Made by a program: the position numbers and the translations under genes
Part shown: piece after piece, positions 56,811 through 60,792 of the stretch
How positions within the stretch are numbered: position 1 is the first letter of the stretch
How the letters are laid out: every line of letters starts with the position of its first letter
Origin: Gamaleyavirus NAN33P5
Sequence record: OZ035750.1
Strand: one strand, 5' to 3'
Length of the DNA: 64,000 bases
Notes under the pieces: generated by a model
What the model was told of the DNA's origin: nothing
Database searches by the model: none
The model's input: the letters and a program-made list of their open reading frames with translations, nothing else

Positions 56811-57985
56811 TATTTCATTCCTTTAGGGATATGAACTACCTCCCCAAAAGGTACGGTAGCATTAGGATTATTCAGAACACACCAGATGATAGGGATATCA
56901 AATGGTAATTCTTCCATAGGACGAACATACATATCGGAGAATATGATTGCAGCGGTTGGCTTATTCTTAATAATCCATTCACGCACTGGTTCAAGGTTTG
57001 TACCACCACGACCAGTAATCTTAATCTCTTCAAAAGTATCTTCTTCAGTGATGTCCATCTCTTCTTGGATAATATCGTCGAAGGTAATTAAGGACATCTT
57101 CTTAGGATTGAACTGGCTCTTAACGTAGGCAACCTCTGAGTTAAAACGCAGAGAGTCAGCACTACTAATAGAACCAGATACATCCTCAAAGTAAGCTAAG
57201 TGTCGTAAGCGTCCTTCATCATCTTCCAGAGAAGGTAGATAGATGTCAGTGAAACGACGGTTAGGTCTGGCCCATGTATAGTGTGAGTCATCAATGTCGG
57301 TAAAGAAGTTCAGTAGGACTTCCTGCCAAGGAACCACTGGTTTAAGGAATTGGGTAATAACCTCTTCCATACGACCAGCACCCTTACCAGGCATCATTCC
57401 ACCAGCCATCTTCTGGCTTTGCATTGCACGTACTACGTTGTTGACAACAGCACCCTGGGACTGCCCCGAAGAGGGAGCTTTCATGTCGCCAGCAAGACCT
57501 GCTCCAGCACCCCCTGACGGCTTCTGCCTTTTCTGAGGGTTCTTCATCAGGTCATCGTAGATGTCTTCTTCAACCCATCCTTTATATTGAGGGTCTTTGC
57601 AAATGCCTTTATCGATACCAGTGAACTTGTAACCATCTTCCTCTAACTGAAGATTAATGAAGTGATCACATGCCTGGTTCCAGACTTCCGGGTCACGGCT
57701 TCCACAACGGATGCCATGGAGATATGCCACATGCCAGAGTTCGTGCATTAGTACTGTTTCTCTTGCATCGGGACACATCCAGACAAAGAAGTCTGGGTTG
57801 AAATGGAGTTCTATCCCATCAGTACATGCAGTGGGGCAGTCTTCACGTTTCCATGAGAACTTAAGACTACACAGCAATGAACCAAAAAATGCAGCAGAGC
57901 GTCCAAGGAATGCATTAGCCTGAATACGGTCATACTCACGCATGAGTTGTTCATCACTAAGTGTGTGCTGAGGTATCTGGTTCAT
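56810..57985 (-). CDS. VWA-like/putative metallopeptidase (DUF2201-like) protein, partner of MoxR-type ATPase
   Basis: 391 aa; HExxH 'HELWHVAYLHG' in N-terminal half; immediately downstream of split AAA+ ATPase gene. Confidence 0.55.
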   Translation of the reverse strand: MNQIPQHTLSDEQLMREYDRIQANAFLGRSAAFFGSLLCSLKFSWKREDCPTACTDGIELHFNPDFFVWMCPDARETVLMHELWHVAYLHGIRCGSRDPEVWNQACDHFINLQLEEDGYKFTGIDKGICKDPQYKGWVEEDIYDDLMKNPQKRQKPSGGAGAGLAGDMKAPSSGQSQGAVVNNVVRAMQSQKMAGGMMPGKGAGRMEEVITQFLKPVVPWQEVLLNFFTDIDDSHYTWARPNRRFTDIYLPSLEDDEGRLRHLAYFEDVSGSISSADSLRFNSEVAYVKSQFNPKKMSLITFDDIIQEEMDITEEDTFEEIKITGRGGTNLEPVREWIIKNKPTAAIIFSDMYVRPMEELPFDIPIIWCVLNNPNATVPFGEVVHIPKGMK

Positions 57986-57992
57986 GTTGTGA

Positions 57993-58398
57993 TTATCCGT
58001 GAATGTAACGAGAGATGTTGGCAGCAGCCTTACGCCATTCAGGGGTAGCCTGAATTTCTGGTAATGCTTTACCTACTGTACGGAAGTACAGAATCTTATG
58101 GGTGAACGTTTTAAAGCGTTCAATATACTGAAGTACATCAGCGAAGTTATCTTCAGTAGTCTTGTTAGCCAAATGGTTAACGGTAGCCCAACACAGGTTA
58201 TTATCTTCCGGTAGTACACAGCCCAAAGGGTCTTTAACTACCTTCTCAATCGTAATCATACGATTGTATACCTGAGTGAACTGAACAAATTCTGTAGCTT
58301 TACCGGCAGTAACGTGGCCTGCATAGTAGATAGAATCTTCATCAGGCAGAGCACCTTCCGGTCGGTTCTTAAGGTCTTTGTTAACAAAGTCCCAAGTC
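57993..58398 (-). CDS. MoxR-like AAA+ ATPase, exon 3 (C-terminal part)
   Basis: Frame continues from inferred 3' splice site (about 58399); ORF-track fragment 57993..58421 starts at a TTG inside the intron. Confidence 0.5.
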
Positions 58399-59261
58399 GT
58401 GATATTCGACGTAGTTCGCAAGACTACGCCCGTTCTCTTATGAACTGCTGCATGTCACCATGCAGACTAGACTATATCAACACCCTTAGCATTACCTGTA
58501 GGGTGGCTACCATTTCGAGCATCATTAGCTTATGCTCTACTCCCTCCCGGGATAGTCGTTGGACATTTATGGAAGTCAGAAATTACGTTTACGTCTAGTA
58601 TCCCCAATTGAGTCCAGATAGGCATCTACGGCTTTAGCAGCAGCTACCTCATCTTTAAACTGTTTGTAGAATACTACCTTGTAATTATCTTTAACCTTGG
58701 CTTCGTAATAAGTGTAAATTTTATCTTTATACTTACTACGACGTATGTGCACATTATGGTACACAGACTTACCTGGTTTAGGGGCTAGCCCAGTTTTATG
58801 AGCATGGAGATTATTGTCTTGTGTGGTGCATGGTTCCAGGTTGTCTTCATGGTTATTCTCCTTATTACCATCTAAGTGGTTAACAGGATCACCATACTTA
58901 AAGCCTGGTTTAAATGCTGCACAAACGAGTTGATGAATAGTTTTCTTATGGGTCTTCCCATCTTTGTACATAGAGGCATACAGATAGCCTAATCGGTTCT
59001 TGTTAAGTGCCCTGATAAGGGGCTTAACTTCTCTGTACTTATTTACAGATTGGCGTGACTCATGCTTACGGTATTTACCTGTATTAGATACTTGGTATAA
59101 ACCTTCAAATTCAACAACATCTTTCCAAATCTCACTCATGCTGACTCCCAATTTAGTAACGGATTGACTTTTACATATTACCTTTAGGCAACAGAAAGTA
59201 AAGTGTTTCCCGTTTTAGGCAGCTTTAGACAGGGAATTACTCCCCTGAATCGCAGTGTGTT
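58399..59261 (-). mobile_element. group-I-like intron B carrying HNH homing endonuclease ORF (boundaries approximate, 5' end uncertain)
   Basis: Interrupts ATPase ORF; contains HNH ORF 58576..59151 and a conserved about 150-nt core shared with intron A. Confidence 0.5.
58576..59151 (-). CDS. intron-encoded HNH homing endonuclease (NUMOD4-like N-terminus)
   Basis: 191 aa; 'EIWKDVVEFEGLYQVSNTGK' and 'HQLVCAAF...VNHLDGNKENNHEDNLE' HNH motif; TTG start in track. Confidence 0.75.
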   Translation of the reverse strand: MGVSMSEIWKDVVEFEGLYQVSNTGKYRKHESRQSVNKYREVKPLIRALNKNRLGYLYASMYKDGKTHKKTIHQLVCAAFKPGFKYGDPVNHLDGNKENNHEDNLEPCTTQDNNLHAHKTGLAPKPGKSVYHNVHIRRSKYKDKIYTYYEAKVKDNYKVVFYKQFKDEVAAAKAVDAYLDSIGDTRRKRNF

Positions 59262-59596
59262 TACGAGGACAACAGAATGTCTTGTTCTTATGGGCAGGGT
59301 CGAAGTCGTGCAGATAGCCAGGGTTAGCATGTAAGAATGCAACCAGACGCTCATCCCATTCTTGTGGAATCATTACGTCTTCAACAAAGATGTCGAAGTT
59401 AAGTTCCATTTCGAAGTGGACAACACGAGACTGCATTGCAGTACCCAGTGGGTTAACGATGGCTCGGTCAGTAGCTTTGTTACCGGCACAGATAATCATC
59501 ACATTAGGGTGAAGTTTTTTCTGTCCAGTCATACGGTCTAGAATCAGTTTGTATGCAGCAGCTACTACTTCTTTCTTAGCTGAGTTGAATTCGTCG
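59262..59596 (-). CDS. MoxR-like AAA+ ATPase, exon 2 (Walker B / sensor region)
   Basis: Begins 'DEFNSAKK...MIICAGNKATDRAIVNPLGTAMQSRVVHFEM'; joins exon 1 to give 'GWLLFLDEFNSA' Walker B; 3' boundary approximate. Confidence 0.5.
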
Positions 59597-60478
59597 CATT
59601 ATCTTCACATTAGTTCGCAACTACTAATGCCGTCAGTACACTCAGTGAATACTGACTGCTGCATGTCACCATGCAGAGGAGACTATATCAAAGCCCTATT
59701 GCTAGGGCTGTTACCGTTTCGAGTGCCATTGGCTTGCACCCTACTCTACTCACTTCCACATTTCTGTGTGTTTTCGATAGTCGTTTGGCGTTTAAATGAA
59801 ATTGGTACTGTACCCAATCTGTGTAAGATTGTTGTTAGTTACGTAGGAGTCATAGGCTTTGGCAGCCTCTTCCTCTGTTTTGTAACGTCCCAAACCAATA
59901 GATTTCTTGTTAACCCTTATATGGGCACACCATCTTTGTCTTTGCTCACTCCAGGATACACCTACGTATTTGGAGGAGCCTCCACGATTTTTGTTACTAG
60001 CGTTGGCATGTCTGTTTGACAATAATCCAGTATCCCAAGCATGTTTAATATTTTGGGACTGGGTACACCATTCCAGGTTACTCTCGTGGTTATTAAGAGG
60101 GTTTCCATCTATATGATTAATAACTGGATAGTTATTGGGGTTTGGTACAAAGGCTATGCCTACCAGACGATGAACTTGATATTTGTACACTTTACTATTC
60201 ATGTACAGGTTCACGCAGTAGTACCCTTTGTTATTAAGATACGGTTTTATATGTGTCCTATTTTTGTATTTATACTTTCCTTCTTTTCGGCGTACTACAC
60301 CAAAGTTGGAAACTTCATACGGTAAGTCGGGCACATCTTTCCAAATTTCATTATTTAGCACAGGATTGTCTCCAATTGATTAAAACTCAAGTATACACCT
60401 GAGCCAACCATATTAGAAGAGGTTCCCTGTTTAGGTAACTTTCGACATGAGATTGCTCTCATGAAGCCCCGTCAGTTA
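59597..60478 (-). mobile_element. group-I-like intron A carrying HNH homing endonuclease ORF
   Basis: Inserted exactly within the Walker B codons; exon 1 ends in U, inferred intron ends in G; contains HNH ORF 59792..60361 and the conserved core 59611..59788. Confidence 0.55.
59792..60361 (-). CDS. intron-encoded HNH homing endonuclease with AP2-like domain
   Basis: 189 aa; 'EIWKDVPDLPYEVSNFGVVRR', 'HRLVGIAF...INHIDGNPLNNHESNLEW' HNH motif and 'YVGVSW...RWCAHIRVNKKSIGLGRYKTEEEAAKAYD' AP2-like domain. Confidence 0.8.
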   Translation of the reverse strand: MLNNEIWKDVPDLPYEVSNFGVVRRKEGKYKYKNRTHIKPYLNNKGYYCVNLYMNSKVYKYQVHRLVGIAFVPNPNNYPVINHIDGNPLNNHESNLEWCTQSQNIKHAWDTGLLSNRHANASNKNRGGSSKYVGVSWSEQRQRWCAHIRVNKKSIGLGRYKTEEEAAKAYDSYVTNNNLTQIGYSTNFI

Positions 60479-60792
60479 AGGAACAAGAGCCAGCCATTAT
60501 AACCTTCTGGTACTTCGTCACCCTCGATAGGGAATAAGTCAGCGAAAGGGATAAACTCTGCACGATCACCATTACGGAATGGTAGACCAGACAAGTCTTC
60601 CGGGGCAGAAGTAGACAGACGATGGTCAATCAGCTTCATGCCAAATTCTTCTGCAACAGAACGAATAATTGCAGACTTACCCATGCCAGGTGATGAAGTC
60701 AGGAACGGTACGTTACCTGCTTGCAAGGCACGGATAATAAAGTTACGGGCTTGGCGTGTATTACATACAGTCAAGGAGTCAATGCTCGCCAT
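60479..60792 (-). CDS. MoxR-like AAA+ ATPase, exon 1 (Walker A)
   Basis: 'FLTSSPGMGKSAIIRSVAEEFGMKLIDHRL' P-loop; ORF terminates two codons after 'GWLLFL' where the intron begins. Confidence 0.55.

Follow-up and report, generated by a model that had tools for sequence, protein, structure and literature searches.

The gene for the gp24 ATPase lies on the minus strand of a 64,000-nucleotide (nt) stretch of DNA from Gamaleyavirus NAN33P5 (record OZ035750.1; this whole stretch is referred to below as the window), where it is divided into three exons by two group I introns, each of which carries an open reading frame (ORF) for an HNH protein. The region is that of a G7C-like, N4-like coliphage of the genus Gamaleyavirus, and the local genes are oriented on the minus strand; 103 phage records match it, with a typical match covering about 40% of a 3-kb query in three pieces that correspond to the exons. 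A preliminary description of this DNA had drawn attention to two copies of an element of roughly 150 nt, one downstream of each HNH ORF, and had suggested that they form a ribozyme core common to the introns, on the 3' side. Here we consider the structure, the relatives and the likely behavior of the two introns to which these segments belong. The features of the locus are collected in Table 1.

The interrupted gp24 gene and its repeated segments

The exon junctions were located by aligning the intron-less G7C gp24 gene to the window with blastn and then applying the rule that the exon ends in U and the intron in G. Both introns have the U at position -1, available for the U·G wobble of P1, and the G at their end. 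The last base of exon 1 falls inside a Walker-B-like motif, LLFL/DE, where the slash marks the intron 1 site. The predicted ligated junctions read ...GUUCCU/CGACGAAUUC... for intron 1 (UUCCU/CGACGAA) and ...GUCCUCGU/ACUUGGGAC... for intron 2 (CCUCGU/ACUUGG). Joined at these boundaries, the three exons form a 1053-nt ORF whose 350-residue product is identical to the intron-less G7C gp24 at 346 of 351 positions (98.6%), matches PHROG 1297 'ATPase' from end to end (E 5e-134), and has a Pfam AAA match that spans the first junction (28.7 bits; cutoff 21.2). Pfam matched no family in the separate gp24 exon ORFs. In unspliced RNA the exon frames terminate 2 codons into intron 1 and 16 codons into intron 2.

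Table 1. Positions in the window of the gp24 exons, the two introns, their ribozyme helices and their ORFs
Feature	Position	Strand	Remarks
gp24 AAA ATPase exon 1	60479..60792	-	codons 1-104 and 2 nt of codon 105; blastn against G7C gp24
Intron 1	59597..60478	-	882 nt, td-like group I intron, subgroup IA2; preceding exon U 60479, terminal G 59597
Intron 1, 5' ribozyme half	60336..60478	-	P1-P6 region
Intron 1, internal guide sequence GGGG	60467-60470	-	pairs with exon UCCU 60479-60482
Intron 1, 5' helices	P2 60446-60463, P3 60434-60439, P4 60426-60430, P5 region 60370-60421	-	GCAA loop on P2
Intron 1, 5' helices, continued	P4' 60360-60364, P6 60358-60359, P6a 5' strand 60341-60352	-	
Intron 1 ORF, putative HNH homing endonuclease (HNH-1)	59792..60361	-	189 aa; NUMOD4, HNH_3 and AP2 (Pfam), PHROG 59
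Intron 1, P6a 3' strand	59795-59805	-	just upstream of the second repeated segment, inside the ORF end
Intron 1, 3' ribozyme half (second repeated segment)	59597..59791	-	P6' to omegaG
Intron 1, 3' helices	P6' 59788-59789, P7 59777-59782, P7.1 region 59745-59776, GUA 59742-59744, P7.2 59721-59741	-	
Intron 1, 3' helices, continued	P3' 59710-59715, P8 59692-59709, P7' 59681-59686, P9 59659-59676	-	GUGA loop on P9
Intron 1, 3' end	P9.1 59632-59656, P9.2 59608-59629, omegaG 59597	-	
gp24 exon 2	59263..59596	-	last nt of codon 105 to codon 216 (...FCCPR); terminal U; blastn against G7C gp24
Intron 2	58398..59262	-	865 nt, td-like group I intron, subgroup IA2, at R216/T217; exon U 59263, terminal G 58398
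Intron 2, 5' ribozyme half	59140..59262	-	P1-P6 region
Intron 2, internal guide sequence GCGA	59250-59253	-	pairs with exon UCGU 59263-59266
Intron 2, 5' helices	P2 59230-59247, P3 59218-59223, P4 59210-59214, P5 region 59167-59205	-	GUAA loop on P2
Intron 2, 5' helices, continued	P4' 59158-59162, P6 59156-59157, P6a 5' strand 59141-59149	-	P6a 5' strand is GGGAGUCAG, the Shine-Dalgarno sequence of the ORF
Intron 2 ORF, putative HNH homing endonuclease (HNH-2)	58576..59139	-	187 aa from ATG 59139; NUMOD4 and HNH_3 (Pfam), PHROG 59
Intron 2, P6a 3' strand	58571-58579	-	shares positions with the stop codon of the ORF
Intron 2, 3' ribozyme half (first repeated segment)	58398..58575	-	P6' to omegaG
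Intron 2, 3' helices	P6' 58563-58564, P7 58552-58557, P7.1 58542-58551, GUA 58538-58540, P7.2 58517-58537	-	GGGA loop on P7.1
Intron 2, 3' helices, continued	P3' 58506-58511, P8 58481-58505, P7' 58470-58475, P9 58448-58465	-	GUGA loop on P9
Intron 2, 3' end	P9.1 58432-58445, P9.2 58410-58428, omegaG 58398	-	
gp24 exon 3	57993..58397	-	codon 217 to stop; blastn against G7C gp24

The two related segments are indeed present 3' of the HNH ORFs, and their similarity is far above chance. The whole 64 kb contains just two occurrences of a 35-nt pattern, GATATAGTCTNNTCTGCATGGTGACATGCAGCAGT, both on the minus strand (58444-58478 and 59655-59689), where 100 shuffles gave an expectation of 0, and a repeat search returned a 43-nt pair at 91% identity together with a 19-nt pair at 84%. 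When the 3' segments are aligned with MAFFT, the mean column identity is 75%, and the alignment contains all of the sequence blocks quoted in the preliminary description, which had placed the segments correctly but drawn them slightly too short: each spans from the stop codon of the HNH ORF to the last G of the intron. The hairpin given there as ctgcatg-gtga-catgcag exists, but as written it is the minus-strand reading, the strand from which the elements are transcribed. Conservation at the 3' side is likewise real, but the similarity extends to the ~115-140 nt that lie 5' of the HNH ORFs (~74% alike) and to the HNH proteins themselves (34% identical). No further copy was found in the window at E <= 1 with R1, a covariance model built from 121 related cores, and the pattern search agrees.

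Within the shared 35-nt pattern is a block of 22 identical nt (58444-58465 and 59655-59676). The segments that contain it are direct repeats on either side of exon 2, with a spacing of 1.2 kb, and a recombination event between these would remove exon 2 and fuse both introns. Shuffling between T4 introns via core blocks of this kind has been described in the older literature.

Structure and family of the two ribozymes

The proposal that both introns have a common ribozyme core on the 3' side is borne out by alignment, folding and covariation, and is in line with Rfam matches that stay below the gathering score. For the 3' cores we aligned 121 non-redundant relatives and counted pairs in P7, P7.1, P7.2, P8 and P9. 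In this set 87.6% of cells are paired, compared with 65.9% after shuffling and at most 47% when the partners are slid along the alignment; double-sided changes are seen in 810 cells and 21 pairs, and the covariation score of 0.532 compares with 0.169 for shuffled alignments (0/500 shuffles). A structure of the whole ribozyme, derived by hand from P1 to P9.2 with P7 as a pseudoknot, was then scored on six introns from which the ORF had been deleted: the two window introns, intron 1 of phage U1G, the introns of Pseudoalteromonas phage pYD6-A and Klebsiella phage Pylas, and the td intron of T4. Paired cells make up 91.2% of this set, and both sides have changed in 33 of the 62 pairs. Pairing is 100% in P3, P4, P6, P7, P7.2 and P9 and 97% in P8; we attribute the lower values of P1, P9.1 and P9.2 to the placement of gaps by MAFFT in regions of variable length. 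The P3 helix is a long-range pairing between the 5' half and the repeated 3' half, and its strands read GCUGCC/GGUAGC in intron 2, GUUACC/GGUAAC in intron 1, GCUACU/AGUAGC in Pylas and UCUAUC/GAUAGA in td. Covariation thus supports a core of P3-P4-P6 and P7-P8(-P9) domains with a P3/P7 pseudoknot, with the shuffled and slid controls far lower.

In each intron the guide is complementary to the end of its own exon: the exon and guide sequences are UCGU and GCGA for intron 2, UCCU and GGGG for intron 1, UCCU and GGGA for pYD6-A, UGCU and GGCA for Pylas, and GGGU and GCCU for td. When the ORF was looped out by replacing it with a GAAA cap, unconstrained minimum free energy (MFE) folding reproduced the group I helices, recovering P2, P3, P4, P5, P6a, P7.1, P7.2, P8, P9, P9.1 and P9.2 in intron 2 and the same helices except P7.1 and P7.2 in intron 1. 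The ribozyme of intron 1 differs from its U1G counterpart at 7 positions, none of which breaks a helix; three fall on the second position of GNRA loops and two convert an A-U pair to G-C in the extension of P7.1.

A further pattern of covariation links two hairpin loops. Across 82 related cores (among loci L002-L125), the loop of P7.2 (xAAG[N]...[A/U]UG; 58523-58531 in intron 2 and 59727-59735 in intron 1) covaries with the loop of P9.2 (U-[U/A]-[G/A]-C-G; 58416-58422 and 59615-59622, respectively). The first pair is C:G in 49 cores, U:A in 22 and U:G in 6, with 5 mismatches, and the second is A:U in 23, U:A in 19 and A:A in 7. This covariation suggests a tertiary loop-loop contact between the P7.2 and P9.2 hairpins. 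We presume that it is the peripheral contact already modelled for the IA2 introns of T4, for which a literature search found nothing.

On the minus strand, the Rfam family Intron_gpI (RF00028) picks up the two segments at 35.6 bits (E 1e-6) and 19 bits (E 0.09). The gathering score of the family is 50 bits, and the introns surfaced only with an E-value threshold applied to the 3-kb region; at the gathering threshold, a scan of the whole window returned two tRNAs only. We ascribe the low scores to the ~560-nt ORF, which the model does not bridge, so that its 5' half is misplaced inside the ORFs. The model aligns both copies to J6/7-P7, P3', P8, P7' (GAUAUAGUCU) and P9. The core motif CGACTAT-N60-90-GATATAGTC is found in more than 120 IMG/VR contigs, and ORF-less relatives with the same 3' core reach 55-115 bits against RF00028, above the threshold (17 loci scanned); in one example, at L020 4283-4568, P9 is identical. 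Several of these contigs have more than one such intron. L023 (IMGVR_UViG_3300035070_001968, 5077 bp) has four RF00028-level introns within 2 kb, and L016 and L020 have two RF00028-level matches with another td-like core within ~1.5-2.5 kb, so that clustering is common in the td-like family.

Introns of subgroup IA2 are recognized by P7.1 and P7.2, which lie between P7 and P3' and are linked by G-U-A (PMC3428280). This region reads CCC-GGGA-GGG, A-GUA and GAGCAU...AUGCUC in intron 2, and consists of a long P7.1, GUA and GGGUGC...GCACUC in intron 1, with a GAGUA block that is invariant or nearly so across the 121 relatives. We therefore place both introns in subgroup IA2, to which the T4 td intron also belongs. 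T4 records contain the 79-nt 3' end of the td intron at 100% identity, and R1, whose seed does not include T4, finds the intron in M12742.1 with 90.5 bits (E 6e-21). The td intron shares with the window introns the order of helices from P1 to P9.2, the P7.1-GUA-P7.2 arrangement and an ORF looped out of P6a. There is complete identity in the P7/P7' strands and in the P9 hairpin CUGCAUG-GUGA-CAUGCAG and near-identity in the J3/4-P4, P4'-P6 and J6/7 blocks (CUAAAC.GGGAACCUCU...GACAAUCC.GUGCUAAAU), and the stretch P7'-P9 differs only in two linker bases. In contrast, the td intron resides in the gene for thymidylate synthase rather than in the gp24 ATPase gene, its ribozyme is only ~61-62% identical, its P2 is longer and its P7.2 loop shorter, and both window introns have extra P5 hairpins. 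The endonuclease of the td intron is I-TevI, of the GIY-YIG type, whereas the proteins of the window introns resemble I-HmuI.

Predicted splicing and homing, and alternative explanations

On this evidence each repeat is almost certainly the 3' half of the catalytic core of an IA2 group I intron, one of two that interrupt gp24 and are related to one another yet distinct. The RNA 5' of the HNH ORF supplies P1, in which a 4-nt guide pairs with the exon end through the U·G wobble, together with P2-P5 and the 5' strands of P6 and P6a; from the repeated segment come P6', P7, P7.1, P7.2, P3', P8, P7', P9, P9.1, P9.2 and the last G of the intron. P3, P6/P6a and the P7 pseudoknot bring these halves into contact, with the ~560-nt ORF looped out of P6a. 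In the mechanism that we envisage, the folded RNA would then bind free guanosine in P7 and perform two transesterifications, leading to removal of the intron, joining of the exons and an uninterrupted 350-codon gp24 mRNA. When phages co-infect a cell, intron-less alleles of gp24 are presumably nicked or cut by the I-HmuI-like HNH endonucleases and would receive copies of the introns by homing. The intact, covarying structure and the exact restoration of the reading frame argue for self-splicing and homing, and endonuclease activity is likewise predicted.

Some observations weigh against this interpretation. P1 is just 4 bp long in both introns, and inspection by eye, the only approach used here, gave no convincing P10 pairing for intron 2. 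The window's own Intron_gpI scores lie below the gathering score, the P6a pairing of intron 2 is not significant in a duplex test (z = -1.5), and the splicing of both introns is something that we infer from their sequences.

We considered how else two such similar segments might arise. They could be duplicated protein-coding sequence, either a C-terminal extension of the HNH proteins or the plus-strand ORFs at 58314-58598 and 59549-60019; these mechanically predicted ORFs do overlap both segments, with a common stretch, CCMSPCR.DYI. The gaps in the pairwise alignment, however, are of 21, 7, 7 and 5 nt, three of which break any frame, both HNH ORFs end before the conserved block, the substitutions are concentrated at compensatory positions in stems, and the same core occurs in the ORF-less introns that pass the Rfam threshold. 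The conservation is thus non-coding, as the preliminary description had stated, and we rejected a coding explanation, refuted by the covariation counts, as having a vanishingly small chance of being correct. We found neither of the two things that the description had named as speaking against a ribozyme, duplicated coding sequence and a lack of covariation-supported helices. Were one intron a recent copy of the other, made within this genome, the two would be paralogues and their resemblance little evidence of constraint; such an origin would fit their spacing in a single gene, the 22-nt identical block and the equivalent position of their ORFs. It is very unlikely in view of the divergence between them: the ribozymes of introns 1 and 2 are only 68% identical, much as intron 2 is to that of pYD6-A or of Pylas (70% each), and this value and the 34% identity of the HNH proteins were the basis on which we rejected the idea. 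P7.1 is long in intron 1 and short in intron 2, U1G has intron 1 alone, and the nearest phage homologue of HNH-2 is the ORF of the pYD6-A intron (48.7% identity) rather than HNH-1. From the low identities, the P7.1 architectures and these relationships, we conclude that the introns are two members of one family.

It could also be supposed that both introns are decayed and defective in splicing, with gp24 fragmented or non-functional and the conserved blocks kept for recombination or for regulation of the HNH genes. Our case for splicing is a deduction and the Rfam scores are sub-threshold, as noted above, which leaves some room for this view. We nevertheless judge it highly improbable, given that neither intron has lost any core helix, the guide, U(-1) or omegaG, that the exon frame is kept at 98.6% identity to the intron-less orthologue, that translation of unspliced RNA would stop so soon inside either intron, and that the differences between intron 1 and its U1G counterpart avoid disrupting helices.

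The two IA2 introns of gp24 add a new two-intron allele to a class of elements that is very well known, and general knowledge of group I introns is unchanged by them. Their consequences are for annotation. The locus is to be read as one spliced gp24 protein of 350 aa and two intron-encoded HNH endonucleases, not as five 'hypothetical' genes. They also mark a blind spot of routine scans, since an ORF in P6a separates the halves of the ribozyme and Rfam at its gathering threshold therefore misses ORF-bearing phage group I introns. Finally, a double-intron allele and a fourth insertion site are added to a gene already known as an intron host in N4-like phages.

Relatives in gp24, the P6a stem and neighboring genes

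The presence of the introns at their sites is patchy among close relatives, the pattern that homing or loss would leave. The window holds both, U1G has intron 1 alone, at the same site and with 97.6% ribozyme identity, and most of the 103 related records have neither. In a collection of 50,697 phage genomes, no record covered more than 30% of intron 2 at the DNA level and none had both introns together. The exact endonuclease of intron 2 does occur on an unannotated 74,407-bp contig of the public run ERR12949720 (L126, Logan ERR12949720_4), which has the same two-intron layout and is probably the same or a near-identical phage.

Among the other N4-like phages (Schitoviridae), group I introns with an HNH ORF in P6a are also found in the gp24 homologues of Escherichia phage U1G, Pylas, pYD6-A and the Vibrio phages JA1/VchO139-I. 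GenBank has the Pylas ATPase as 'split by intron' and lists an HNH endonuclease encoded in that intron, pYD6-A has a joined ATPase coding sequence, and the HNH gene of U1G is noted as 'Phage intron'. A gp24 gene split by an HNH gene has been reported in Vibrio N4-like phages (Fouts et al., 2013; PMC3670811), and the td gene of one N4-like Vibrio phage has been reported to contain an RF00028 intron (Katharios et al., 2017; PMC5746245). Within gp24, intron 1 is inserted in codon 105, the Pylas intron after residue 119, the pYD6-A intron at P215/R216 and intron 2 at R216/T217. The pYD6-A intron (L123, ~1888), the closest phage relative of intron 2, is thus one codon (3 nt) upstream of the intron 2 site. 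With at least four td-like, HNH-carrying introns at four sites, two of them only 3 nt apart and occupied by introns whose endonucleases are closer to each other than to any other relative, we tentatively raise the possibility, on balance a doubtful one, that gp24 of N4-like phages is an intron hot-spot, that intron 2 and the pYD6-A intron are related by a one-codon re-targeting, and that P6a couples HNH translation to ribozyme folding. If so, these two introns would be a natural example of an intron and its endonuclease re-targeted by one codon, in which the guide GGGA has become GCGA.

In both introns the HNH ORF is looped out of the ribozyme between the strands of P6a. The intron 1 ORF has a GTG start within P4'/P6, and the intron 2 ORF has an in-frame TTG further upstream, at 59151. 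In each case the beginning of the ORF (the Shine-Dalgarno sequence in intron 2, codons 4-7 in intron 1) pairs with its last codons or stop. For intron 1 this pairing of ORF start and end has a predicted energy of -23.4 kcal/mol (z = -5.5). In intron 2 it is a 9-bp stem, seen in the MFE fold, between the Shine-Dalgarno region and CUGACUUCC at the stop codon. A P6a built from the ends of the ORF, together with a GTG start in P4'/P6, would allow ribozyme folding and endonuclease translation to compete, as they may do here; given the duplex test for intron 2, we treat the coupling of translation to folding through P6a as speculative.

Both intron ORFs match I-HmuI, an intron-encoded HNH nicking endonuclease of the Bacillus phage SPO1 (PDB 1U3E; E 2e-12 for intron 1 and 2e-10 for intron 2), over the N-terminal NUMOD4/HNH region. 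The intron 1 protein differs in having an AP2-type C-terminal DNA-binding domain, and the phage and host gene are different, the host gene of I-HmuI being that for DNA polymerase.

HNH genes also occur next to gp24. G7C has a free-standing one, gp24.1, between gp24 and the VWA/DUF2201 gene gp25 (L001 1021-1497), and the annotation of U1G shows two genes for HNH endonucleases in the stretch 3' of gp24. In the window there is no HNH gene between gp24 and gp25, which abut (57985-57993). Elsewhere in the window, the two tRNA genes found by Rfam are adjacent to one another on the minus strand, at 33803-33876 and 33886-33958, with scores of 62.4 and 42.5 bits.

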